Shown here piece by piece: positions 1,574 to 42,084 of a DNA stretch of 64,000 nt (the stretch's first letter is position 1; every line of letters starts with the position of its first letter). The notes beneath the pieces were generated by a model. That model did not search any database. It was not told the origin of the DNA and saw only the letters and a program-made list of their open reading frames with translations. Location: NCBI RefSeq assembly GCF_058153355.1, contig NZ_CM177019.1, one strand, 5' to 3'. The position numbers and the translations under genes were made by a program.

Positions 1574-3895
1574 TTAACGTTTTTTGCCCATTGCTGCCGC
1601 CAGCGCATCCATCATTGCGCTATTACCGGCAGGCTGCGCTTCACGACCGCGTGGTTTGGCTGCCGGGCGGTTGTTTTGCGGACGTTCATTACCGCCGCCG
1701 CGACGGGCGTTGGTTTCGCCAGGCTGCTCGTCCAGACGCATAGTCAGGGCGATACGTTTACGCTGAAGATCCACTTCCAGCACTTTCACCTTCACAATGT
1801 CGCCCGCTTTCACCACGGTATGCGGATCTTCCACAAACTTGTTCGACAATGAAGAGATGTGAACCAGGCCGTCCTGATGCACGCCAATATCGACAAACGC
1901 GCCAAAGTTGGTGACGTTGGTCACCGCACCTTCGAGGATCATACCCGGTTGCAGGTCGTTCATTGTCTCGACGCCATCGGCAAACTGGGCGGTTTTAAAT
2001 TCCGGACGCGGATCGCGACCTGGTTTTTCCAACTCTTTGATGATGTCGGTTACCGTCGGCACACCGAATTTCTCATCAGTAAAGTCAGACGCTTTCAGGT
2101 TACGCAGTTCGCTGCTGTTACCCATCAGATCTTTCAGTGCCTGCTGTGTTGCTGCCAGAATGCGTTCCACCACCGGATAGGCTTCCGGGTGAACAGTAGA
2201 GGCGTCCAGCGGGTTGTCACCGTGGTTAATGCGCAAGAAGCCTGCGCACTGCTCGAAGGCTTTTGGCCCCAGGCGGCTGACTTTTAACAGTTGCTGACGG
2301 TTCTGGAACTGGCCGTTCTCATCGCGCCAGGCCACAATGTTTTGCGCCATCATGCGCGTCAGGCCAGCCACGCGAGTTAACAGCGGAACAGAAGCGGTAT
2401 TGAGATCGACGCCAACGGCGTTTACGCAGTCTTCTACTACTGCATCCAGTTTGCGGGCCAGTTGCGTCTGGCTGACGTCATGCTGATATTGACCTACGCC
2501 GATAGATTTCGGATCGATTTTCACCAGCTCCGCCAGCGGATCCTGCAAACGACGGGCGATAGACACCGCGCCACGCAGCGAAACATCGAGATCCGGGAAC
2601 TCCTGCGCCGCCAGTTCGGAAGCCGAGTAAACCGACGCGCCTGCTTCGCTGACGACCACTTTCTGTGCGGTCACTTTCGGAAACTGCTTCTGAACGTCGA
2701 GATAGAAACGCTCAGTTTCGCGGGAAGCCGTACCGTTACCGATTGCCACCAGTTCAACGTTATGTTTTTCACACAAGGCAGCAACGGTCATCGCTGCTTT
2801 TGCGGCTTGTCCGGTGTGCGGGTAAATGGTGTCGGTCGCCACCAGTTTACCCGTCGCATCGACTACCGCCACTTTTACCCCAGTACGCAGACCCGGATCG
2901 AGGCCCATCGTTGCACGCAGTCCGGCAGGGGCCGCCATCAGAAGATCGTGTAGGTTACGGGCAAAGACGTTGATTGCTTCATCTTCCGCGCGTTCACGCA
3001 CTGTGCCCATCAGTTCGGTTTCCAGATGCATCAGCACCTTGATGCGCCACGTCCAGCTCACCACGCCTTTGCGCCAGCTATCCGCCGGGGCATTGTTCAG
3101 GCGCAGGCCAAGGTGATCCATGATGATTTGCTCGCAATAGCTCTCTTTTGGCGGCTCATCGAACTGCGGATCGGCATTCAGCGAAAGTTGGAGTACGCCT
3201 TCGTTACGCCCACGGAACATCGCCAGCGCGCGGTGAGAAGGCACCGTTGACAGCGGTTCGTGATGATCGAAATAGTCGCGGAATTTCGCCCCTTCCTCTT
3301 CTTTACCGTTCACCACCGTAGAAACCAAATGCGCGTTCTTCCACAGATAATCACGCACTTTCGCCAGCAGCGCGGCATCTTCGGCAAACCGTTCCATCAG
3401 GATATAGCGCGCGCCGTCCAGCGCGGCTTTGGTATCTGCTACGCCTTTATCGGCATCAACATATTGTGCAGCGGCGACTTCTGGCGTGTGCGACGGATCG
3501 TTCCACAGTAGGTCGGCCAACGGCTCAAGCCCTGCTTCAATGGCGATTTGCCCGCGGGTGCGGCGTTTAGGTTTGTAGGGCAGGTAGAGGTCTTCGAGTT
3601 CGGTTTTGCTTAAGGTGGCGTTGATAGCATTCGCCAGCTCGTCGGTCAGTTTGCCTTGCTCGGAAATGGACTTGAGGATTGCCTGACGTCTCTCTTCCAG
3701 CTCGCGCAAATAGCTCAGACGCGTTTCCAGATTACGCAGCTGCGTGTCATCCAGACCGCCGGTGATTTCCTTACGATAACGTGCGATAAACGGCACGGTA
3801 TTCCCTTCGTCAAGCAGGCGAACGGCAGCGTCAACCTGTTCCGGGCGCGCCTGAATTTCACCCGCAATAATGCGGCAGAACGAATCATTCATCAT
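1574..3895 (-). CDS. tex: Transcription accessory protein Tex (S1 RNA-binding domain protein YhgF)
   Basis: 773-aa ORF starting [21 protein letters not shown] with a C-terminal S1-like region; length and sequence match E. coli YhgF/Tex. Confidence 0.95.
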
Positions 3896-3991
3896 GGTTT
3901 GAGTTCATCTTTTCGGATCAAAAATCAGGGGATAGTTATACGGACTGGCTGGCAAAAATGCCAGCCATCGGCAGGAGGTTAAGACTCTTCC

Positions 3992-4468
3992 TTACGGTTT
4001 CACGTACTCAATAGCATTAACATACCAGCTCGCTTCCCCGGCAGGGGTATTGACCACTGCCAGATCGCCCACTTCTTTTTTCAGCAATGCGCGGGCCATT
4101 GGGGAATCGATAGAGATGTAATCTTTACGGCCAAAAATTTCATCGTAGCCGACAATGCGAAAACGGTGAGTCACGCCATCGTCGTTTTCAATCTCCACCC
4201 ATGCGCCAAAAAAGACTTTGCCTTCCTGTTGCGGGGAGTAATCGACGATTTTGAGATTTTCCATGCATTTAGTGAGATAGCGCACGCGACGGTCGATTTC
4301 ACGCAGACGCTTTTTATTATACTGATAGTCAGCATTTTCGCTGCGGTCGCCCAGACTTGCAGCCCAGGTCACTTTTTTTGTGACCTCCGGGCGCTCTTCA
4401 CGCCAGAGATAATTTAGCTCTTGTTTGAGTTTTTCATACCCTTCCCGGGTAACCAGGGGCGTTTTCAT
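3992..4468 (-). CDS. greB: Transcription elongation factor GreB
   Basis: The ORF track gives 170 aa, but GreB starts at the internal MKTPLVTREGYEKLKQEL (158 aa); the start is placed accordingly. Confidence 0.9.
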   Translation of the reverse strand: MKTPLVTREGYEKLKQELNYLWREERPEVTKKVTWAASLGDRSENADYQYNKKRLREIDRRVRYLTKCMENLKIVDYSPQQEGKVFFGAWVEIENDDGVTHRFRIVGYDEIFGRKDYISIDSPMARALLKKEVGDLAVVNTPAGEASWYVNAIEYVKP

Positions 4469-4695
4469 CTCGTTGATTCCCTTTGTCTGTTTGATAATGC
4501 GCACATTGGGTATAACGTGATCATATCAACAGAATCAATAATGTTTCGCCGAATAAATTGTATACTTAAGCTGCTGTTTAATATGCTTTGTAACAATTTA
4601 GGCTGAAATTCATACCAGATTTAGCTGGTGACGAACGTAAGCTTTTTTAAGAATACACGCTTACAAATTGTTGCGAACCTTTGGGAGTACAAAGA

Positions 4696-6764
<2,069 letters not shown>

Positions 6765-6772
6765 ATAAAACA

Positions 6773-6801
6773 GGAGGCGAAGGTGCCTCCCGTTTTATTT
6801 T
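6773..6801 (+). terminator. Intrinsic terminator of ompR-envZ
   Basis: ggaggcgaaggtgcctcc hairpin followed by cgttttatttt, 9 nt after the envZ stop. Confidence 0.8.
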
Positions 6802-6927
6802 GTGCACTCAGTATCTACTGAATGAATACGGTTTCAGACATCGGCACCATACGAAGTAAAGTGTACTGTAAGCTGATTGCAGGCTAGCGTATCCTGATTA
6901 GTAAAAGCACACTAAAGGAATAGCTTG

Positions 6928-8211
6928 ATGCAACTTACCAACGAAGAACAAGTACAGATTGCTCGTATAAAAGAAAAAATCCCACGCATTGCCGCACTGG
7001 ATCCTGAATGTAAGTTATTCGGTTCTGAAGGTTGGAAATATCAATGGCCGAAGCCTGCCAGCGAGGCGGAAATAGCTTCCTGGGAGAAAAAACATAGCGT
7101 CACTTTGCCACGGGAATATCGAATTTTTCTTCGCTATATCGCTAATGGCGGTCCGGCACATGCCTACGGTCTTGAATCTTTAGGCGGTACAGATATTTAT
7201 GGCGATATAACAAAAGAAAGCCCTGTACCGCTTTATATGACGCAGCAGGATGTTGATGTGTTGAATGCAGGCCGTACAGAAGATGATGAAGAATATAGTT
7301 TTTTTGACGGCGCATTGACCATTCTCACCCTGGGATGTACTTATGATATTTGCCTGGTGGTGACGGGGCAGTATCGCGGAAGGTTAATGCTGACTGATGG
7401 TGATGAAGATTATCCGTTTGATTTTATATATGATAAAAATTTCCTCAACTGGTATGAACGCTGGCTGGACGATTTTATTGCTGGCATGAGTATGAAGGGT
7501 TTCGATAGAAGTTTGCCAGGAACGCAAATTCAACTGCGTGAGTGGTTTTTAACTGAGAAAATCCCGGATTTACGTAGATCCATTTTATTCTCGCTATGCC
7601 GTTTTCCACAGATAGAACCCGAAACATTTGCCCTTTGGGAACATGTTTGCCGCACAGAGAATGATAAAGAATTGTGTGAAGAGGCATTCATAAGATTACG
7701 CCAAAAAAAAGTTTCTTGTGCTGCAGATATTTTTCGACTCTATTTTACAATGCCAGATGAATTACGTGATATTGCTATTAAAGATCTCCGTTTTGCCTGT
7801 AGAGATAGTGTGGTGAATATTGAGGATTATATTCATTCACTGTTAATAATAATGCCTGAACTTGACGATGACACTCTATCCTCAGCTGTCTTTGCTGTAC
7901 GAGAAACAGAGTATAATAAATATGATACTTTTCTGCCGCTTCTCGAACGTATCACTGATGACCGTCAGCAAACATTATTGTGGGCGATGAGTAAGGCGCC
8001 TGATTTCAATGAAAGCCGAGGATTCGTTGAGTTGGTATTACCGCTTTTTGCATCATCAAAGATGGAGAATGTAAGGAAGGCTATTTTGTTGCTCATTGAA
8101 GTTAAAGATAATCGTATTCCACCATTGGTTGATGAAGCTGCAACTCGTTTCCCTGAACTGACCATTTTACGAGAAAACTACTATCTCAGGACGTGGGGAC
8201 ATAAGCCATAA
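6928..8211 (+). CDS. Hypothetical protein with N-terminal SUKH/SMI1-KNR4-like domain and C-terminal alpha-helical (HEAT-like) repeat region; first gene of the AT-rich island
   Basis: Long ORF (427 aa from the ATG; the track starts 3 nt upstream at TTG). RBS aaggaa lies 7 nt upstream of the ATG. Motif SEAEIASWEKKHSVTLPREYRIFLRYIANGG resembles the SMI1/KNR4 (SUKH-1) signature. The C-terminal part, e.g. ENVRKAILLLIEVKDNRIPPLVDEA, looks HEAT-like. Not a K-12 gene that I recognise. Confidence 0.8.
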   Translation: MQLTNEEQVQIARIKEKIPRIAALDPECKLFGSEGWKYQWPKPASEAEIASWEKKHSVTLPREYRIFLRYIANGGPAHAYGLESLGGTDIYGDITKESPVPLYMTQQDVDVLNAGRTEDDEEYSFFDGALTILTLGCTYDICLVVTGQYRGRLMLTDGDEDYPFDFIYDKNFLNWYERWLDDFIAGMSMKGFDRSLPGTQIQLREWFLTEKIPDLRRSILFSLCRFPQIEPETFALWEHVCRTENDKELCEEAFIRLRQKKVSCAADIFRLYFTMPDELRDIAIKDLRFACRDSVVNIEDYIHSLLIIMPELDDDTLSSAVFAVRETEYNKYDTFLPLLERITDDRQQTLLWAMSKAPDFNESRGFVELVLPLFASSKMENVRKAILLLIEVKDNRIPPLVDEAATRFPELTILRENYYLRTWGHKP

Positions 8212-8248
8212 ATTAATGGCTCAGAAATGATCTAACGCGGAGAGAAAT

Positions 8249-8779
8249 ATGATCAGGGAACATATTCAGCAAGCGATAAATAATAGGTTAGCATTTGATG
8301 GCCCATTCAATGTTGTTCCTGAACCTGCAAGCACTGCGTTTGATAGCCGGATCCCGACATTGAAAAACGGTGTCTGGCAGAAGGCCAGCCCTATGTTGCA
8401 GGCGCGTTTTGCACATTGTGGACGTTGGTTAAGCGCTACACATGGAAGCTGGCTAAGTATAAGTGACATGGAAACGCTTTGGCAGGAACACATAGAAGAT
8501 ACGTTTCTTGATGAAATCAAAATGAATGCTGTAGCTTCAAGTGATAATTGGGATAACCATGCCTTGGGACTATTTCGTTCTCATCGCCTGTCACTTTTTG
8601 CCGGTAGTGATTACATTTATGAAATGGTTTTTCTCCTTTGGCTAGATAGTACCGTTGAGCCAGAGGTCTGGGTTTATGACTGCAATGGGGAATCACGTTA
8701 TAAAGATCTTAATGATTACCTGAATGCATATATTAATGATGACGTAAGCGCCTGTGAGCGCTCCTGGCGAGTAGAATGA
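8249..8779 (+). CDS. Hypothetical small soluble Trp-rich protein (island gene 2)
   Basis: 176-aa ORF with GGAGAG RBS 5 nt upstream, 37 bp after gene 1. No TM segment. No family recognised with confidence; the C-terminal VWVYDCNGESRYKDLNDYLNAYIND weakly recalls SUKH-type immunity folds. Confidence 0.75.
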   Translation: MIREHIQQAINNRLAFDGPFNVVPEPASTAFDSRIPTLKNGVWQKASPMLQARFAHCGRWLSATHGSWLSISDMETLWQEHIEDTFLDEIKMNAVASSDNWDNHALGLFRSHRLSLFAGSDYIYEMVFLLWLDSTVEPEVWVYDCNGESRYKDLNDYLNAYINDDVSACERSWRVE

Positions 8780-9402
8780 ATAGCCCCCCTTGCCCCTTTG
8801 ATCCACAAACCGCACATTACCTCGGTACAGTGCAAATCCACTACACCTCAACCACCTTCAACGCTGCCGTTAAGCATTATACCTATCACATTAAAAAGCG
8901 TTTTAAAGGGTTTAAATGGGGAATTGGTACCGCTGGCTTATTGGCTATATTGCCCATGATCCCACAATGGTTGAAACCTTCTCATGACTTTAAACTCAAC
9001 GCAATCAGTACGTTAATTCTTCTATTAATGTTGCCACTCCTCTTATCAATGTTCCTGTTAATCAGCAGAAGAATTAACGATTTTAAGTCAAAAACAAAGC
9101 AAGTTACTTTTACGAAACCCGTGCGTTATGCGTTTTATTTCGAGGGGATTGTTTTTTATGAATCTCATCAGCAGGGCATACTTCGCTGGGAAGATTTTTA
9201 TAGCATTGACTATGAAGAAGATTATTTGTGGCTTTTTCTGCATTTACCGAAGAGTTTTCCCAGAGAAGCGACGAAAGCGTTTTGCGATATTTTCATTCCC
9301 GCCAGCGCGATAAAAGCGCAGCCTGAACTGGATACGTTTTTTCGTGAAACACGCCACTATCTGGATTATCTGTTTGTCCCGTTTAATTCTGACAGAAAAT
9401 AA
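8776..9402 (+). CDS. Hypothetical inner-membrane protein (2 predicted TM helices) with C-terminal soluble domain (island gene 3)
   Basis: 208-aa ORF whose ATG overlaps the gene 2 stop (ATGA). Hydrophobic stretches WGIGTAGLLAILPMIPQWL (aa 48-66) and AISTLILLLMLPLLLSMFLLI (aa 76-96). The C-terminal ~110 aa are possibly YcxB-like/bacterial PH-like (unverified). Confidence 0.75.
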   Translation: MNSPPCPFDPQTAHYLGTVQIHYTSTTFNAAVKHYTYHIKKRFKGFKWGIGTAGLLAILPMIPQWLKPSHDFKLNAISTLILLLMLPLLLSMFLLISRRINDFKSKTKQVTFTKPVRYAFYFEGIVFYESHQQGILRWEDFYSIDYEEDYLWLFLHLPKSFPREATKAFCDIFIPASAIKAQPELDTFFRETRHYLDYLFVPFNSDRK

Positions 9403-9403
9403 A

Positions 9404-9437
9404 AAATCCCCCGTATCTGGTGAAACGGGGGATTTCG
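9404..9437. terminator. Intrinsic terminator shared by island gene 3 (+) and pck (-)
   Basis: aaaaaatcccccgt...acgggggatttcg hairpin with an A-run on one side giving a T-run on the minus strand; sits between the gene 3 stop (9402) and the pck stop (9455). Confidence 0.75.
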
Positions 9438-9454
9438 TCGCTTAACTTATCGGA

Positions 9455-11077
9455 TTACAGTTTTGGACCAGCCGCTACCAGCGCGGCACCCGCAGGGGTG
9501 TCGGTGTATTTATCGAAGTTGTCGATAAACAGTTTCGCCAGAGTTTCGGCTTTTTCCTGCCACTGTTCCGGAGAAGCGTAGGTGTTACGCGGATCGAGGA
9601 TCTTAGTGTCTACGCCCGGCAGTTCAGTCGGGATCGCCAGGTTAAACATCGGCAGAGTGAAGGTTTCTGCGTTATCCAGCGAACCGTTGAGGATAGCGTC
9701 GATAATGGCGCGGGTATCTTTAATGGAGATACGTTTGCCAGTACCGTTCCAGCCGGTGTTAACCAGATATGCCTGCGCACCCGCCGCTTGCATACGTTTC
9801 ACCAGCACTTCTGCGTACTGAGTTGGGTGCAGCGACAGGAACGCCGCGCCGAAGCAAGCGGAGAAGGTTGGCGTCGGTTCGGTGATGCCACGTTCAGTAC
9901 CGGCCAGTTTGGCGGTGAAGCCAGAGAGGAAGTGGTACTGAGTTTGATCGGCAGTCAGGCGAGAAACCGGTGGCAGCACACCAAAGGCGTCTGCGGTCAG
10001 GAAGATAACTTTAGTTGCATGGCCCGCTTTGGAAACCGGTTTAACGATGTTATCGATGTGATAGATCGGATAAGAAACGCGGGTGTTCTCGGTTTTTGAA
10101 CCATCGTCAAAATCGATAGTGCCATCTTCACGTACGGTGACGTTTTCCAGCAGCGCATCGCGACGGATAGCGTTGTAGATTTCAGGTTCCGCTTCTTTCG
10201 ACAGCTTGATGGTTTTCGCGTAGCAGCCGCCTTCGAAGTTAAACACGCCGTCGTCATCCCAGCCGTGCTCGTCATCGCCAATCAGGCGACGTTTCGGGTC
10301 GGTGGAAAGGGTGGTTTTACCGGTGCCGGAAAGACCAAAGAACACCGCAACATCGCCTTTCTCGCCAACGTTGGCGGAGCAGTGCATAGAAGCGATGCCT
10401 TTCAGCGGCAGCAGGTAGTTCATCATTGAGAACATCCCTTTCTTCATTTCGCCGCCGTACCAGGTGCCGCCAATCAGCTGCATACGCTCGGTCAGGTTAA
10501 ACGCCACGAAGTTTTCAGAGTTCAGCCCCTGCTCTTTCCACTGGGGGTTAGTGCATTTTGCGCCGTTCATAACGATAAAGTCAGGTTTAAAACCAGCCAG
10601 CTCTTCATCGCTCGGGCGAATAAACATGTTTTTGACAAAATGCGCCTGCCAGGCCACTTCGGTGATGAAACGGACGGAAAGACGCGTGTCTGGGTTCGCA
10701 CCACAGAAAGCGTCGACAACGAACAGACGTTTACCGGAAAGCTGTTTGGTCACCAGGCCCTTCAGATGCTGCCAGGTTTCCGGAGAGAGAGGTTTGTTGT
10801 CGTTCTTACCTTTGCCTTTATCAGCCCACCAGAAGGTATCGCGAGTGGTATCGTCACGGACGATATATTTATCTTTTGGTGAGCGACCGGTGAATATACC
10901 GGTATCGACGGCAACGGCACCCAGATTAGTTAACACCCCGCGCTCATAACCTGTCAGGCTCGGATCGAGCTCTTCCTGATACAGCAGGTCGTAGCTTGGG
11001 TTGTAAACGATATCATGTACGTCACTGATACCATAAGCCTCGAGTTCTTGCGGGGTCAAACCATTGTTAACGCGCAT
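9455..11077 (-). CDS. pck: Phosphoenolpyruvate carboxykinase (ATP)
   Basis: The track ORF is 563 aa; PckA starts at the internal [30 protein letters not shown] (540 aa). Contains the kinase-1a motif GLSGTGKTT. Confidence 0.95.
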
Positions 11078-13180: not shown

Positions 13181-13250
13181 CAATGCGTATTTGATTTTTT
13201 ATCGGATACGACGCTTTATCTTACCAACAATAACTTGCGAATTATTGCAT

Positions 13251-13278
13251 AGGCCTGGTAAGCGCAGCGCATCAGGCC
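13251..13278. repeat. REP element
   Basis: The reverse complement ggcctgatgcgctgcgcttaccaggcct matches the REP consensus. Confidence 0.6.
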
Positions 13279-34037: not shown

Positions 34038-35263
34038 TGGCGCGATTTGTGGTGTTAGTGATTGATAGCTTTGGCGTAGGGGCAATGAAAGATGTCACGT
34101 TGGTGCGTCCGCAGGATGCCGGGGCGAATACCTGTGGTCACATCCTGAGCCAGTTGCCGCATTTGCAGCTACCAACGCTGGAGAAAATGGGGCTAATCAA
34201 CGCATTAGGTTATGCGCCTGGCGATATGCAGCCGTCAGACTCCGCAACCTGGGGTGTGGCAGAGCTGCAACATGAAGGTGGCGATACCTTTATGGGGCAT
34301 CAGGAAATTTTAGGCACGCGCCCGTTACCGCCGCTGCGGATGCCCTTTCGCGATGTGATTGACCGTGTTGAACAGGCATTAGTCACCGCTGGCTGGCGGG
34401 TTGAGCGCCGTGGCGAAGAGTTGCAATTTCTGTGGGTCAATCAGGCGGTTGCGATTGGCGATAATCTCGAGGCGGATTTAGGCCAGGTCTATAACATCAC
34501 CGCCAATCTCTCTGTGATCTCTTTTGACGACGCAATCAAAATTGGTCGTATCGTGCGTGAGCAGGTACAGGCCGGTCGGGTCATTGCATTTGGCGGCCTG
34601 TTAACTGACAGTCAGCGCATTCTCGATGCCGCAGAAAGCAAAGAAGGGCGCTTTATTGGCATCAATGCGCCGCGTTCTGGCGCTTATGACAACGGTTTCC
34701 AGGTCGTACATATGGGCTATGGCGTCGATGAAAAAGTGCAGGTGCCGCACCAACTGCATCAAGTGGGCGTGCCCACGGTGCTGGTGGGTAAGGTGGCAGA
34801 TATCGTCAGCAATCCTTATGGCGTGAGCTGGCAAAACCTGGTGGATAGCCAGCGGATTATGGATATCACCCTCGACGAATTTAACACGCATCCGACGGCG
34901 TTTATTTGCACCAATATCCAGGAAACCGACCTCGCTGGTCACGCAGAAGACGTCGCACGTTATGCCGAACGTTTGCAGGTCGTTGACCGTAACCTTGTCC
35001 GGCTTGTTGAGGCGATGCAGCCAGATGATTGCCTGGTCGTGATGGCGGATCACGGTAACGATCCGACCATTGGTCACAGCCACCATACCCGTGAAGTAGT
35101 GCCAGTGCTGGTTTATCAGCAAGGGCTGGTCCACACGCAACTCGGTGTGCGCACCACGCTTTCTGATGTGGGGGCTACCGTGTGTGAATTTTTCCGTGCG
35201 CCACCGCCACAAAATGGTCGCTCTTTTCTTTCCTCCCTCCGGTTTGCAGGAGACACCCTATGA
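34037..35263 (+). CDS. yhfW: Putative phosphopentomutase-family mutase YhfW
   Basis: 408 aa; the start overlaps the yhfX stop (TAATG). Confidence 0.8.
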
Positions 35264-36138
35264 GTTTTGATCCGACGGGCTTCACCCTCGCCCATGAGCA
35301 TCTGCATATTGATCTCTCCGGCTTTAAAAACAACGTGGACTGCCGCCTTGATCAGTATGCGTTCATTTGCCAGGAGATGAACGACCTGATGGCACTGGGT
35401 GTGCGTAATGTGATTGAGATGACCAACCGTTACATGGGGCGCAATGCACAATTTATGCTCGATGTAATGCACGAGACGGGGATCAACGTGGTGGCCTGCA
35501 CCGGTTATTACCAGGACGCGTTTTTCCCGCAACATGTGGCGACCCGCAGCGTGCAGGAACTGGCGCAGGAGATGGTCGATGAAATTGAACAGGGTATCGA
35601 TGGCACGGAGCTGAAAGCCGGGATCATCGCGGAGATCGGCTCCAGCGAAGGAAAGATTACGCCGCTGGAAGAGAAAGTTTTTATTGCCGCCGCGCTGGCA
35701 CATAACCAGACCGGACGCCCGATCTCCACGCATACGTCGTTCAGCACGATGGGGCTGGAGCAATTGGCTCTGTTGCAAGCCCACGGAGTTGATCTTTCGC
35801 GCGTCACCGTTGGTCACTGCGATCTGAAAGACAACCTCGACAACATTTTGAAGATGATCGATCTCGGCGCGTATGTGCAGTTCGACACCATCGGCAAGAA
35901 CAGTTACTACCCGGACGAAAAGCGCATTGCGATGCTCCACGCGCTACGTGACCGTGGTTTGCTGAACCGCGTCATGCTGTCGATGGATATTACGCGCCGC
36001 TCCCATTTAAAAGCCAACGGTGGTTATGGCTATGACTATTTATTGACCACCTTTATTCCGCAATTGCGCCAGTCAGGATTCAGTCAGGCCGATGTGGATG
36101 TGATGTTACGTGAAACTCCCTCTCAATTTTTCCAATAA
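35260..36138 (+). CDS. php: Phosphotriesterase homology protein
   Basis: 292 aa starting [20 protein letters not shown] (metal-binding HxH); overlaps the yhfW end. Confidence 0.9.
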
Positions 36139-36148
36139 GGACAGACTC

Positions 36149-36502
36149 ATGAAAAAGATTGGTGTTGCAGGCTTACAGCGTGAGCAGATTAAAAAAACCA
36201 TTGAAGCGACGGCTCCTGGCTGTTTTGAAGTTTTCATTCATAACGACATGGAAGCGGCGATGAAGGTGAAATCCGGGCAACTGGATTACTACATCGGCGC
36301 GTGTAATACCGGTGCGGGCGCGGCATTGTCGATTGCCATCGCGGTGATTGGCTATAACAAAAGTTGCACCATTGCCAAGCCGGGCATTAAAGCGAAAGAC
36401 GAGCATATCGCCAAAATGATCGCCGAAGGGAAAGTGGCGTTTGGGCTATCCGTTGAGCATGTCGAACACGCGATTCCGATGCTGATTAACCATCTGAAAT
36501 AA
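36149..36502 (+). CDS. yhfU: Uncharacterised protein YhfU
   Basis: Start taken at the internal MKKIGVAGLQREQIKK (117 aa), which avoids a long overlap with php. Confidence 0.75.
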   Translation: MKKIGVAGLQREQIKKTIEATAPGCFEVFIHNDMEAAMKVKSGQLDYYIGACNTGAGAALSIAIAVIGYNKSCTIAKPGIKAKDEHIAKMIAEGKVAFGLSVEHVEHAIPMLINHLK

Positions 36503-36513
36503 AAGGCACGACT

Positions 36514-37818
36514 ATGGATCTGTATATTCAGATTATCGTGGTGGCGTGCCTGACGGGTATGACATCGCTTCTGGCGCATCGCTCGGCAGCCGTTTTTCAT
36601 GACGGTATCCGCCCGATCCTGCCGCAACTGATTGAAGGCTATATGAACCGTCGTGAGGCGGGGAGTATCGCTTTTGGTCTGAGCATTGGTTTTGTGGCCT
36701 CGGTGGGGATCTCTTTTACCCTGAAAACCGGGCTGCTCAACGCATGGTTACTCTTTCTTCCTACCGATATCCTCGGCGTACTGGCGATAAACAGCCTGAT
36801 GGCGTTTGGCCTTGGTGCACTCTGGGGCGTACTGATCCTCACCTGCCTGCTGCCGGTAAACCAGCTGCTGACCGCGCTACCGGTGGATGTATTAGGTAGT
36901 CTGGGGGAATTAAGCTCGCCAGTGGTTTCAGCTTTTGCACTGTTCCCGTTGGTGGCGATTTTCTACCAGTTTGGCTGGAAGCAAAGTCTGATCGCCGCCG
37001 TGGTAGTGTTGATGACCCGTGTGGTGGTAGTGCGCTATTTCCCGCATCTCAATCCGGAATCCATCGAAATCTTTATTGGCATGGTGATGCTGCTGGGGAT
37101 CGCGATTACTCACGACCTGCGTCATCGTGATGAAAATGATATCGATGCCAGCGGTATGTCGGTGTTTGAAGAACGCACGTCCAGGATTATTAAAAACTTA
37201 CCCTATATCGCCATCGTAGGGGCGCTGATTGCCGCCGTTGCCAGCATGAAGATTTTTGCTGGTAGTGAAGTGTCGATCTTCACCCTGGAGAAAGCATATT
37301 CCGCAGGCGTAACGCCGGAACAATCACAAACGCTGATCAACCAGGCGGCGCTGGCGGAATTTATGCGCGGGCTTGGCTTTGTGCCTTTGATTGCCACCAC
37401 GGCCTTAGCCACCGGCGTATATGCAGTTGCGGGCTTTACCTTTGTTTATGCGGTGGGCTATCTCTCGCCGAATCCGATGGTTGCGGCGGTATTAGGCGCA
37501 GTGGTTATTTCGGCAGAAGTCCTGTTACTTCGTTCGATCGGCAAATGGCTGGGACGCTACCCATCGGTACGTAATGCGTCGGATAACATCCGTAACGCCA
37601 TGAATATGCTGATGGAAGTGGCTCTGTTGGTCGGTTCGATTTTCGCAGCAATTAAGATGGCGGGCTATACCGGATTCTCTATCGCGGTTGCCATTTACTT
37701 CCTCAACGAATCTCTGGGCCGTCCGGTACAGAAAATGGCGGCACCGGTCGTAGCAGTAATGATCACCGGCATCCTGCTGAATGTTCTTTACTGGCTTGGT
37801 CTGTTCGTTCCGGCTTAA
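36514..37818 (+). CDS. yhfT: Putative inner-membrane transporter YhfT
   Basis: 434-aa polytopic membrane ORF. Confidence 0.8.
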   Translation: MDLYIQIIVVACLTGMTSLLAHRSAAVFHDGIRPILPQLIEGYMNRREAGSIAFGLSIGFVASVGISFTLKTGLLNAWLLFLPTDILGVLAINSLMAFGLGALWGVLILTCLLPVNQLLTALPVDVLGSLGELSSPVVSAFALFPLVAIFYQFGWKQSLIAAVVVLMTRVVVVRYFPHLNPESIEIFIGMVMLLGIAITHDLRHRDENDIDASGMSVFEERTSRIIKNLPYIAIVGALIAAVASMKIFAGSEVSIFTLEKAYSAGVTPEQSQTLINQAALAEFMRGLGFVPLIATTALATGVYAVAGFTFVYAVGYLSPNPMVAAVLGAVVISAEVLLLRSIGKWLGRYPSVRNASDNIRNAMNMLMEVALLVGSIFAAIKMAGYTGFSIAVAIYFLNESLGRPVQKMAAPVVAVMITGILLNVLYWLGLFVPA

Positions 37819-37829
37819 GGAAGGCACCT

Positions 37830-38915
37830 ATGAAGACGTTTCCTTTGCAAAGCCTGACGCTTATTGAAGCGCAGCAAAAGCAGTTTGCGTTGGTGGATAC
37901 GATTTGCCGCCATTTTCCCGGCGCGGAGTTTCTTACCCGCGGTGATTTGGGCTTAACGCCGGGACTGAATCAACCGCGTATTACTCAGCGTGTGGAGCAG
38001 GTGCTGGCTGACGCGTTTCATGCGCCAGCGGCGGCGCTGGTACAGGGCGCGGGTACTGGAGCGATTCGTGCGGCGTTGGCGGCTTTGCTCAAACCGGGGC
38101 AGCGTCTTCTGGTGCATGACGCGCCTGTTTACCCGACGACTCAGGTCATTATTGAGCAGATGGGGCTGACACTTATCACTGCTGATTTCAACAACCTGTC
38201 GGCGCTTAAACAGGCCATTGAAGAGCAACAACCAGATGCCGCGCTGGTGCAGCATACGCGCCAGCAGCCGCAGGACAGCTATGTACTGGCAGATGTGCTG
38301 GCAACGCTGCGCGCAGCAGGTGTTCCAGCCTTAACCGATGACAACTATGCGGTGATGAAGGTGGCGCGCATTGGCTGTGAATGCGGGGCGAATGTCTCGA
38401 CATTTTCCTGCTTCAAGCTATTTGGGCCAGAAGGTGTTGGCGCGGTGGTAGGCGATGCTGATGTTATTAACCGTATTCGCGCCACGCTCTACTCCGGCGG
38501 CAGCCAGATTCAGGGCGCGCAGGCGTTGGAAGTCTTGCGTGGGCTGGTATTCGCGCCAGTGATGCACGCGGTACAGGCGGGGGTATCTGAGCGGTTGCTG
38601 GCTTTACTTAACGGTGGCGCGGTGGCGGAAGTTAAAAGCGCCGTTATTGCCAATGCACAGTCGAAGGTGTTGATTGTGGAGTTTCATCAACCGATTGCCG
38701 CCAGAGTGCTTGAAGAGGCGCAAAAGCGCGGCGCGTTGCCTTATCCGGTCGGCGCAGAGTCAAAATATGAAATCCCGCCGCTCTTTTATCGACTTTCCGG
38801 AACGTTTCGTCAGGCGAATCCGCAATTAGAACATTGTGCAATTCGCATTAACCCGAATCGCAGCGGTGATGAGACGGTATTGCGGATTTTGCGCGAGAGT
38901 ATTGCCAGCGTTTAA
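37830..38915 (+). CDS. yhfS: Putative PLP-dependent aminotransferase-like protein YhfS
   Basis: 361-aa ORF, last gene of the yhf cluster. Confidence 0.8.
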   Translation: MKTFPLQSLTLIEAQQKQFALVDTICRHFPGAEFLTRGDLGLTPGLNQPRITQRVEQVLADAFHAPAAALVQGAGTGAIRAALAALLKPGQRLLVHDAPVYPTTQVIIEQMGLTLITADFNNLSALKQAIEEQQPDAALVQHTRQQPQDSYVLADVLATLRAAGVPALTDDNYAVMKVARIGCECGANVSTFSCFKLFGPEGVGAVVGDADVINRIRATLYSGGSQIQGAQALEVLRGLVFAPVMHAVQAGVSERLLALLNGGAVAEVKSAVIANAQSKVLIVEFHQPIAARVLEEAQKRGALPYPVGAESKYEIPPLFYRLSGTFRQANPQLEHCAIRINPNRSGDETVLRILRESIASV

Positions 38916-39019
38916 TTCTGGGAACGATGTTTTCGCAGAGGATGGAGAAAAATACGCCCTCGGAAAATTCAGAGGGCGTTAGCTCATTAAATCGGTGTTA
39001 GCCGATTTCTGTCAGAGAC

Positions 39020-39187
39020 TTACTGTGCAGTAGGACCGCAACCGCCAATGATTTTAGAAATAGAAATTGCCGGGTGCAGCAGGTAGTCGTAAGAGCAGTT
39101 CTTATCACGGTTTTCAATATGACCAGTACATGCAGTTAACGTAGCCAGTACTGCACCTACCAGTGCAACTTTAATAAATTTGTTCAT
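39020..39187 (-). CDS. yhfL: Small lipoprotein YhfL
   Basis: Not in the ORF track (<60 aa). Manual minus-strand translation gives MNKFIKVALVGAVLATLTACTGHIENRDKNCSYDYLLHPAISISKIIGGCGPTAQ (55 aa) with a lipobox LTAC. Confidence 0.8.
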   Translation of the reverse strand: MNKFIKVALVGAVLATLTACTGHIENRDKNCSYDYLLHPAISISKIIGGCGPTAQ

Positions 39188-39433
39188 TTACATTCCCTAT
39201 GTATTATATATTAATTAATATTCATTGATTATATGAATATAAGCGGACTGCTCATAAAAAACGATACAGGAATATTTAATTGGCGTCAGTGAGTGAATGA
39301 CTTAATTTTGTAAGTCGCTGTAACGGTGAATATAATCCATTAGCAAATGATATTTATTAAGAGGGTATGCTTTATTTGCTGAATATATAAAAAGAGTGAT
39401 AAAGAGGGCCAGAATTATCTGGCCCGGGTAAAA

Positions 39434-40807
39434 TTAATGGTTAGAGAACCAGTTCAATTTATCGCGCAGGCCAACGACCCGACCAATAATAATTAATGAG
39501 GGACTGTTCATTTGCTGCGCCAGCTCGCCCAGCTGCGAGAGTGTACCGTCAATCACGCGTTGCGTTACCGCCGTACCGTTTTCGACAATCGCCACCGGCA
39601 TTTCGCCAGGCATTCCGTGTTCAATCAGTTTTTGCTGAATGGTCGCGGCCTGATTAAGCCCCATATAGAACACCAGCGTCTGTTTTTCGGCTGCCAGGTT
39701 TTCCCAGTCCAGCTCGCCACCGGTTTTTAAGTGTCCGGTAATTAAGCGTACGCTCTGAGCATAATCGCGATGCGTGAGCGGAATGCCCGAATAGGCAGAG
39801 CAACCAGAAGCTGCGGTAATACCTGGAACCACCGAGAACGGAATGCCTGCATTGCACAGTGTTTCCAGCTCTTCGCCACCACGGCCAAAAATAAACGGAT
39901 CGCCGCCTTTCAGCCGCACCACGCGTTTGCCTTTTTGCGCTTCCCGCAGCAGGATCTGGTTAATCTCTTCCTGCGGTACGCAGTGGTATCCCGCGCGTTT
40001 GCCGACGAAGACACGATCCGCATCGCGGCGTACCAGATTCATAATATCGTCAGAAACCAGACGGTCGTAGACCACCACATCTGCCTGCTGAATTTGTTGC
40101 AGTCCTTTTAGTGTCAGCAGACCGGCATCGCCCGGACCTGCGCCAACCAGCACCACTTCACCGCGATGATCGAGCGGTTCATTGATTAACTGTTCGGTCG
40201 TTTCGGTAATGGCTTTCTGATCGTTGTTCGCCAGCGACTGCGCCAGGCGATCATTAACGAACAGTTTTTCCCAGAAACGGCGACGTTCACCCATCGTGGC
40301 GAACTGTCTTTTGACCCGACCGCGTAACTGCCCCGCATATTTTGCTACCTGGCCGAGATGCAGCGGCAGCAGTGATTCAAGTTTTTCGCGCAACAGTCGC
40401 GCCAGAACCGGAGAGGTGCCGCCAGAGGAGACCGCTACCATGAGCGGGGAGCGGTCAATAATCGACGGCATAATAAAGCTGGCGGCTTTCGGCGCATCGA
40501 CCACGTTACAGAAGATACGACGAGATTCGGCGGCTTCGCTGACACGCTGGTTAAGCGCGTCATCATCCGTCGCCGCAATTGCCAGCCAGCAGGTGTCGAG
40601 AAGGCTTTCATCAAATGGCCCTTCGACGAGGGTTAACATGCCTGCATCTGCCCATGCGGTGAACTGTGGAATAAACGCTAATGCATTCACCGTTAAGCGA
40701 GCACCTGCGTCTAACAGCAACCTTGCTTTGCGTTCCGCGACATCACCACCGCCGACAATCAAACAGTCGCGGTCGCGTAATTGGCAAAATATAGGCAAAT
40801 GATCCAC
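39434..40807 (-). CDS. cysG: Siroheme synthase (multifunctional)
   Basis: 457 aa, [31 protein letters not shown]..., with a C-terminal SAM-dependent methyltransferase region. Confidence 0.95.
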
Positions 40808-40825
40808 GTAAAAACCCCTTAATAA

Positions 40826-41632
40826 TTAACCGGCAGCCGTTTCAGTTTGATTAAATTTGTCCGCAACCGGACGATTAGCTTTCGGCGTAGCATACCAATA
40901 ACCCAATCCCATGAATACGGCGCCCGATAAAGTATTACCCAGCGTCACCCACAGCAGGTTATGACCAATACCCGCCAGCGTGTAGGCTTCGTTGTGGTTG
41001 CCGAACCATGAGAGCGCGAACAGCGTCATGTTAGCGATGGAGTGCTCGTAACCGGACGCAATAAACGCCAGCAGACACCACCAGATTGCGATAAATTTCG
41101 CCGCGCCTTCAGTACGCAGTGCCATCCAGATTGCCAGACAAACCAGCCAGTTACACAATGCGCCTTTGAAGAACAGTACCATTGCCGGTGCGGTGGTTTT
41201 AGCCAATGCGACGGAGTGAACAATACTGGTATCTACCGGCAGCAGGCTACCACCGCCCCAGCTATAGAGCATGGCAACGAAGACGGAACCGACCAGGTTA
41301 CCCAGCCAGGTTTGCGGCAGGATTGCCCACATTTGCCCGTGGCTGATGGTGCCTGCTTTTACCCCAAAGGTGAGGAACATGGTGTGTCCGGTGAACAGTT
41401 CAGAACCGGCGATAATCACCAGCGTTAAAGCGATACCAAAGGTCGCGCCCATCACCAGCGGACGTACGGATGGATCGAGCAAATTACCGAGCGTGAAAAT
41501 CAGGATGATCCCAAGACCTACATACGCGCCCGCCATGGCGGAGCTGACCCAAAAGCCGAGCGGGTTATTTGCCGACAGGCGTGCAATGCGCGCAGCGTTA
41601 GCCGCACACTTATTAATAGTGTCTGTAAACAT
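40826..41632 (-). CDS. nirC: Nitrite transporter NirC (FNT family)
   Basis: 268-aa polytopic membrane ORF between cysG and nirD. Confidence 0.9.
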   Translation of the reverse strand: MFTDTINKCAANAARIARLSANNPLGFWVSSAMAGAYVGLGIILIFTLGNLLDPSVRPLVMGATFGIALTLVIIAGSELFTGHTMFLTFGVKAGTISHGQMWAILPQTWLGNLVGSVFVAMLYSWGGGSLLPVDTSIVHSVALAKTTAPAMVLFFKGALCNWLVCLAIWMALRTEGAAKFIAIWWCLLAFIASGYEHSIANMTLFALSWFGNHNEAYTLAGIGHNLLWVTLGNTLSGAVFMGLGYWYATPKANRPVADKFNQTETAAG

Positions 41633-41757
41633 TTGATTATCCTTTAAAAAATAAAAACAAAAAATAAAACAAAAAGTTTAAAAAATGTCCTGCAATATAC
41701 CGAAGGTCATTGCAGGACCATGCAAAAAGGGGAGGCATTGCGCCTCCCGTTAAAACA

Positions 41758-42084
41758 TTAACCGCGTAGCTGTACCACGCCGTCTTTCACTCGCGCTTCG
41801 TAATGCTTGACGGAAAACTGTTCGTCTTCCATGCACAAGCCGTCACTTAAGCGAAAACGCTGTTTTTTCAGCGGACTGGCGACCCACAGCTCGCCCTGGT
41901 GTTCCGCAATCAGCCCGCGTGATAGCACGCTGGATTCGAAGAACGGATCGATGTTGCTGATCGCAAACACCTGGTCGCTGTGATACGGGCGGAAAATCGC
42001 TACCTGCTCGTCACCTAACAGCGCGCAGACGCCGGTTTCAGGCAGGATGTCATCAATTTTGCAGATGTCTTTCCACTGGCTCAT
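41758..42084 (-). CDS. nirD: Nitrite reductase small subunit
   Basis: 108 aa, MSQWKDICKIDDILPETG... (Rieske-like). Confidence 0.95.
   Translation of the reverse strand: MSQWKDICKIDDILPETGVCALLGDEQVAIFRPYHSDQVFAISNIDPFFESSVLSRGLIAEHQGELWVASPLKKQRFRLSDGLCMEDEQFSVKHYEARVKDGVVQLRG

Follow-up and report, generated by a model that had tools for sequence, protein, structure and literature searches.

The present analysis suggests that the 104-bp spacer that separates the convergent genes yhfS and yhfL, at positions 38916–39019 of the 64-kb stretch of DNA studied here (the window), is the unoccupied ancestral form of the site at which some Escherichia lineages, including K-12, carry the frlABCDR operon. 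We judge this reading, which rests on comparison of sequences among alleles and outgroups, to be about 85% probable. The absence of frl is an already documented, common accessory-gene polymorphism and carries little weight as a discovery, frl being a well-known accessory operon whose absence from B2, O145:H28, and many other strains has been published. What the comparison adds is the direction of the event, with the empty site as the likely ancestral state. The catabolism of fructoselysine and psicoselysine through frl was reportedly characterized in K-12 by Wiame and Van Schaftingen (ref. 33 of PMC5996543).

Genes and Spacer at the Empty Site

In the window, yhfS (37830–38915, plus strand) is an intact ORF of 361 aa, a PLP-dependent aminotransferase-fold gene that forms the end of the yhfZYXW-php-yhfUTS cluster. 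Its product is 95.3% identical in amino acid sequence to K-12 YhfS (tblastn) and has a YhfS-like_C domain (1.8e-44) and an aminotransferase domain in Pfam. On the other side of the spacer, yhfL (39020–39187, minus strand) is a 55-aa ORF for a small DUF4223 lipoprotein (5e-38, Pfam) with 100% amino acid identity to its K-12 counterpart. The two genes are adjacent and convergent, no gene lies between them, and they are exactly 104 bp apart, in agreement with the first-pass annotation, which had placed their ends at 38915 and, on the opposite strand, 39020, with about 104 bp between. On the upstream side the neighbors are yhfT, yhfU, php, yhfW, and yhfX, and on the downstream side the minus strand carries cysG, nirC, nirD, and nirB. 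A small ORF of 48 aa (38836–38982), which overlaps the end of yhfS and the spacer, was dismissed as a mechanical reading frame without support, and an Rfam scan of 38700–39500 at E ≤ 1 gave no match.

A tblastn search with the K-12 proteins found no homologue of FrlA, FrlB, FrlC, FrlD, or FrlR in the whole 64-kb window; in the same search NirBDC, CysG, YhfL, YhfS, YhfT, and YhfU matched at 95–100%. The operon is thus missing here relative to K-12, as had been claimed on first reading. The K-12 gene order on which that claim leaned, yhfL-frlA-frlB-frlC-frlD-frlR-yhfS (b3369–b3376), agrees with the MG1655 record (nirBDC-cysG-yhfL-frlABCDR-yhfS-yhfT).

Boundaries and Content of the frl Insertion

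In a blastn alignment to K-12, the yhfL side of the window is homologous as far as 38942 and the yhfS side as far as 38921, and 20 bp (38922–38941) remain unaligned. The exact boundaries were taken from a comparison of K-12 with strain S10, whose frl-negative allele is the most similar to that of K-12. The two agree base for base up to one nucleotide past the yhfS stop codon and again from AGAAAC, 9 nt before the spacer hairpin, and between these points S10 has 29 bp where K-12 has 5,242 bp (record positions 3,499,692–3,504,933). In window terms, K-12 homology ends at 38916 next to yhfS and resumes at 38946 toward yhfL, leaving a 29-bp segment, TCTGGGAACGATGTTTTCGCAGAGGATGG (38917–38945), that belongs to empty-site alleles only and has a homologue in EC958, S10, O145:H28, SCPM-O-B-8794, and E. 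albertii. It had been proposed that the spacer be compared with the flanks of the frl insertion point; the flanks do match K-12, and the central 20–29 bp have no counterpart there.

The K-12 insert contains the frl promoter, frlABCDR, and a GC-rich palindromic repeat. Its left end lies 218 bp before the frlA ATG, and its right end 150 bp beyond frlR. The frl control region, mapped to −219/+75, includes σ70 and σ32 promoters, a CRP site, and the FrlR operator (bioRxiv 10.1101/2020.01.13.904318). To judge by these coordinates, the module appears to carry its own regulation and to be self-contained in this respect. At the right end of the insert, the GC-rich repeat GGGGAGAGGGTTAGGGTGAGGGG (positions 10858–10880 of one extracted locus), which may be of the “boxC” type, is found in every frl-positive allele examined; the window has none. 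The same sequence is a dispersed intergenic repeat that also occurs, at unrelated places, in Superficieibacter, Pseudocitrobacter, Enterobacter, and Buttiauxella loci.

No direct repeat of 7 nt or longer is shared by the two termini of the K-12 insert, where only two trivial inverted 7-mers were found, and no integrase, transposase, insertion sequence (IS), or tRNA gene is found at the insert, whose genes are frlABCDR only. The GC content of frl is that of its flanks. An integration site for a mobile element or genomic island was rejected on these grounds.

Comparison with known loci places the window among empty alleles. At the K-12 locus (frlABCDR, b3370–b3375), the flanking genes are those of the window and the yhfL hairpin lies directly downstream of yhfL, but 5,242 bp stand in place of 29 bp, and yhfS is followed by the GC-rich repeat that belongs to the insert. 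The O157:H7-type locus (yhfL-frlABCDR-trpS) shares the yhfL side and the terminator with the window and is otherwise its opposite: frl is present, the eight-gene yhfS–yhfZ cluster is deleted, and frlR abuts trpS. In one O157:H7 strain, MB9-1 (extracted locus 3784–9251), the annotation lists frlD as a pseudogene containing an internal stop. Phylogroup B2 strains (ST131 EC958 and SE15) and O145:H28 have the same order as the window, yhfT-yhfS followed by yhfL-cysG on the opposite strand, with no frl. Their spacers, of about 104–108 bp, are homologous to that of the window and contain the same hairpin core and the segment found only in the ancestral form, although around the spacer and yhfS the window and B2 alleles are only 86–92% identical.

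Direction and Age of the Event

The arrangement outside E. coli was assessed by a search with YhfL against one genome per GTDB species, which returned at least 39 loci from a sample that does not include E. fergusonii, E. marmotae, or Salmonella. Directly facing yhfL and yhfS, without frl, are found in E. albertii, in a second divergent Escherichia lineage (SCPM-O-B-8794), and in Citrobacter werkmanii, Citrobacter sp. FP75, Enterobacter sp. ENT03, Superficieibacter electus, and Buttiauxella agrestis, and in no non-Escherichia locus among the matches listed does frl lie within 10 kb of yhfL. The homology is not limited to gene order. The spacer of the window aligns end to end with those of MFDS1022581 (100% identical), EC958, SCPM-O-B-8794, and E. 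albertii, and the alignments to the latter two are unbroken, including the 20–29 bp that K-12 lacks. Because the outgroups share both the adjacency and the spacer, an ancestral allele that never received frl is favored over loss of the operon, and because a deletion could not regenerate the 20–29-bp segment, the window probably holds the ancestral unoccupied allele, with frl as the derived insertion.

The insertion itself appears to be old. Strain E69 (CP089930.1), which has about 91–94% identity to all other Escherichia sampled here, carries frl at exactly the same boundaries (extracted locus 3757–10331), and its frl genes are 91–96% identical to those of K-12, the same as its flanks. An operon with the GC content of its flanks, and as diverged in E69 as they are, points to an old event: the insertion would predate much of Escherichia diversification, or else it would have moved together with the flanks.

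The Spacer Hairpin as a Predicted Terminator of yhfL

The spacer contains an inverted repeat, ACGCCCTCGGAA/TTCAGAGGGCGT, that is unique in the window and folds into a GC-rich stem-loop at 38954–38979. A repeat of this kind had been noted earlier and taken for a possible shared terminator; it does exist, but 13 nt to the left of the previously given position (about 38967–38992). On the minus strand the predicted fold has a ΔG of −16.4 kcal/mol and a z-score of −4.1. The core stem of 8 GC-rich bp (10 bp with one mismatch) is followed by AUUUUUCU, as in an intrinsic terminator, with the U-tract (AUUUUUCUCC on the minus strand) at 38944–38953. All ten Escherichia alleles share the core, ACGCCCTC/GAGGGCGT, unchanged, and in some the stem extends to 10–11 bp; the three distal pairs differ among alleles, two of them (of 11 pairs in all) with compensatory changes, and 95.5% of cells are paired. 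The ATTT(G/T)T motif is kept in 10/10 aligned Escherichia alleles. A second, small AU-rich hairpin, AAATCGG/CCGATTT (38989–39008, minus strand), is a 7-bp inverted repeat that lies 11 nt after the yhfL stop and is present in the minimum free-energy fold. It has 97% of cells paired, and in O157 and O145:H28 one G-C pair is replaced by A-U through a compensatory change. For both hairpins together, 96% of cells pair, vs. 33–49% when the partners are slid.

In K-12, O157, and E69 the larger hairpin is kept beside yhfL, upstream of frl. Since it stays with yhfL where frl sets yhfS 5 kb apart, it would serve primarily that gene, and the stem-loop with its minus-strand U-tract is a predicted intrinsic (Rho-independent) terminator of yhfL. 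A scan for consensus promoters and terminators passed over this hairpin owing to the break in its stem and to the scan's loop rule.

That the terminator is also shared with yhfS is only weakly supported for Escherichia. A GC-rich hairpin between convergent genes does resemble Rho-independent bidirectional terminators; in the frl-positive strains, unlike such elements, it would serve yhfL alone. Moreover, the plus-strand tail, UUAGCUCAUU, is a poor U-tract: as UUAGCUCAUUAAAU it has 3 U in the first 8 positions, short of what defines a bidirectional terminator. This asymmetry is the same in all Escherichia alleles aligned. The Citrobacter, Enterobacter, and Superficieibacter spacers have an A-run, hairpin, and T-run, a symmetric bidirectional terminator, in contrast to the Escherichia form, in which a U-tract is present for yhfL only. 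Of the earlier proposal, the terminator stands as a prediction for yhfL, and the sharing finds little in its favor, given a U-tract on the minus strand only and a hairpin that in K-12 remains with yhfL.

Distribution of the Empty and Occupied Alleles

Among 5426 complete E. coli genomes, 2102 (about 39%) match a 1.1-kb query across the frl-less junction without a break. DNA of K-12 frlABCDR is present in 3300 of the same 5426, always on the chromosome, at this one locus, and essentially in single copy. The two classes are nearly complementary, accounting for 5402/5426 genomes (2102 + 3300), and the approximately 24 with neither frl nor a contiguous junction include IS-mediated deletions, as in SY3626, and partial operons. 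In SY3626 an IS1-associated deletion removes yhfL through yhfZ (extracted locus 7989–8985). Another strain, AR Bank #0349, has an ISApl1 transposase annotated in the stretch that the 3′ portion of yhfS would occupy, immediately before the spacer (extracted locus 1–270).

A 70-mer across the center of the spacer is found at full length in at least 1916/5426 genomes, among them B2 (SE15), O145:H28, an O22:H8 strain, and porcine ETEC; 2020CK-00188 carries it unchanged (100%), and five genomes match it at 99% or better. The yhf cluster (yhfS–yhfZ) is present in 5075/5426. The interval from trpS to cysG is therefore a mosaic of two modules: K-12 has both frl and the eight-gene yhfS–yhfZ cluster; the window, B2, and O145:H28 have yhf only; and O157:H7 has frl only. 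With the empty junction, frl, and the yhf cluster each present in only part of the 5426 genomes, the earlier description of the site as a variable locus was apt.

These counts are in keeping with the literature on the operon. According to genome-scale models and pangenome comparisons, phylogroup B2 lacks the frl transporter and operon, and growth on fructoselysine is predicted for 0–3% of B2 strains vs. 69–91% in other groups (PMC5996543). Absence of frl has been described as a B2 hallmark (bioRxiv 10.1101/2025.09.14.675865), and O145:H28 was reported to lack frl and to have the eight-gene cluster that O157 lacks (PMC3893438). One pangenome paper conflicts with these in assigning Amadori-degradation genes exclusively to a B2/D/E/F/G group (PMC11774025). 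The genes meant there may be paralogues that a DNA search would miss, and for this reason the predicted phenotype should not be over-read.

Lineage of the Window and Divergence Around the Site

The window was read from the start as coming from a non-K-12 lineage, and genome comparisons bear this out. None of the 5,426 complete E. coli genomes exceeds 98.8% identity to any 20-kb part of it. The nearest, N96, from a Tibetan pig, is collinear with the whole window at 98.57% identity and reaches 98.6–98.8% over the flanking core. Across 51.7 kb of flanking core sequence, the identity of the window is 97.19% with K-12 and 97.07% with EC958 (B2); K-12 and EC958 share 97.85%. Being farther from K-12 and from B2 than those are from one another, the window would branch at least as deeply as the A/B2 split, which suggests a deep-branching, under-sampled source lineage nearest to N96, rather than B2. 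The exact YhfS protein was found in Logan assemblies only.

In 1-kb bins, the lowest identity of the entire window, 89–90%, falls in the bin 38001–39000 in every inter-lineage pair, including K-12 vs. EC958. Within E. coli, the dS between yhfS alleles is about 0.39–0.42, near the 0.44–0.46 measured to species-level Escherichia outgroups, with a dN/dS of about 0.05. The divergence therefore peaks at the site because its yhfS alleles are unusually old. Among ten E. coli genomes, the four that are frl-positive share one tight yhfS haplotype (97.5–99.9%), and the six frl-negative alleles are 90–95% identical to each other and to that haplotype. In this sample of ten, the pattern fits the spread of a derived frl-positive haplotype against old empty alleles. 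The peak of divergence, the old yhfS alleles, and the young frl-positive haplotype would also fit an ancient presence/absence polymorphism across Escherichia, possibly under balancing or niche-dependent selection on the use of Amadori products, a reading that we offer tentatively and consider rather doubtful. Compared with its close relative MFDS1022581, the window is 99–100% identical over 38720–39012 (the spacer, yhfL, cysG) vs. 88–93% over 38116–38715 (mid-yhfS), a sharp recombination mosaic less than 1 kb from the site.

Discussion

In the history that we favor, the ancestral arrangement in Enterobacteriaceae would be that of yhfL and yhfS converging on a short spacer with a terminator hairpin. 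About 29 bp of this spacer would then have given way, in an ancestor within Escherichia, to a self-contained 5.2-kb frl module made up of the frl promoter/operator, frlA–D, frlR, and the GC-rich repeat, and bordered by the yhfL terminator on one side and the stop codon of yhfS on the other. Both alleles would have persisted since the insertion, most likely passing from lineage to lineage through homologous recombination in the genes on either side. The window would hold the empty allele, in which the hairpin at 38954–38979 and its minus-strand U-tract would terminate yhfL.

Exchange of this kind also provides the alternative that fares best, a secondary loss in which an ancestor of the window lineage had frl and recombination in cysG/yhfL and yhfS/yhfT then imported an empty allele; the site would still look ancestral. 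The region is indeed a recombination mosaic, the window and MFDS1022581 alternating between blocks of 99–100% and of 88–95% identity, and empty and occupied alleles can have identical flanks on the yhfL side up to the junction, as in the pairs S10/K-12 and O145:H28/O157. O145:H28 lacks frl though its relatives O157 and O55 have it, which was read as loss by the authors of that comparison (PMC3893438), and O145:H28 carries the ancestral junction. For the window, however, the closest complete genomes examined at the locus, N96 and MFDS1022581, have the same empty site, and the junction 70-mer is identical in 2020CK-00188. With a lineage at least as deep as the A/B2 split, nothing in the data requires a gain followed by a loss, and we regard such a history as unlikely.

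Excision of frl in situ, out of an occupied site like that of K-12 and by way of repeat recombination or an IS, would have left a scar, and deletions are in fact known at the locus: besides the IS1-associated loss of yhfL–yhfZ in SY3626, there are a partial frl in FCI56 and the deleted yhfS–Z of O157, and both frl and a contiguous junction are lacking in about 24 of the 5426 genomes. Against this, the 20–29 bp that are absent from frl-positive genomes and kept in E. albertii and other outgroups could not be recreated by a deletion. Moreover, the window retains no remnant of frl coding sequence, frl promoter, or GC-rich repeat, no insert-derived base is found where it is aligned to the K-12 ends, no IS is present, and the K-12 insert has no flanking direct repeats. 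On these comparisons an in situ deletion is effectively refuted. An assembly or scaffolding artifact that collapsed the operon, for which no support was found, is of negligible probability, since the same junction occurs in complete genomes (the spacer at 100% in MFDS1022581, the 70-mer at 100% in 2020CK-00188), N96 is collinear with the window over all 64 kb, and an independent Logan assembly, SRR28786219, differs from window positions 34830–41915 by 2 mismatches in 7,086 bp.

With the empty site as the ancestral form, what has been published as “loss of the frl operon” would probably correspond to allele replacement or to retention of an old allele, and not to deletion. For annotation, the junction flags the strain as non-K-12. 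As the FrlABCD pathway is absent from the yhfL–yhfS locus in the 64 kb that were read, growth on fructoselysine and psicoselysine is predicted to be negative; frl or a diverged analogue may lie elsewhere in the genome, outside the window. The trait appears to be ecologically relevant, in that evolution experiments in the mouse gut repeatedly yield adaptive changes in frlR, frlA, frlC, and the yhfL/frlA intergenic region (bioRxiv 10.64898/2026.05.27.728231).

Two other segments of the window vary among the genomes compared. A stretch of 75 bp in the yhgE–hslO intergenic region (13191–13265) has no alignment to K-12, and in EC958 the equivalent position is taken by an insQ/IS remnant. Between envZ and pckA, 2.66 kb (6797–9453) are absent from K-12 and EC958 and present in N96; of the three ORFs in this segment, 8249–8779 and 8776–9402 have no Pfam match, and 6925–8211 has an SMI1/KNR4 (SUKH-1) domain. 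This segment is probably the other variable locus to which the first-pass annotation alluded.
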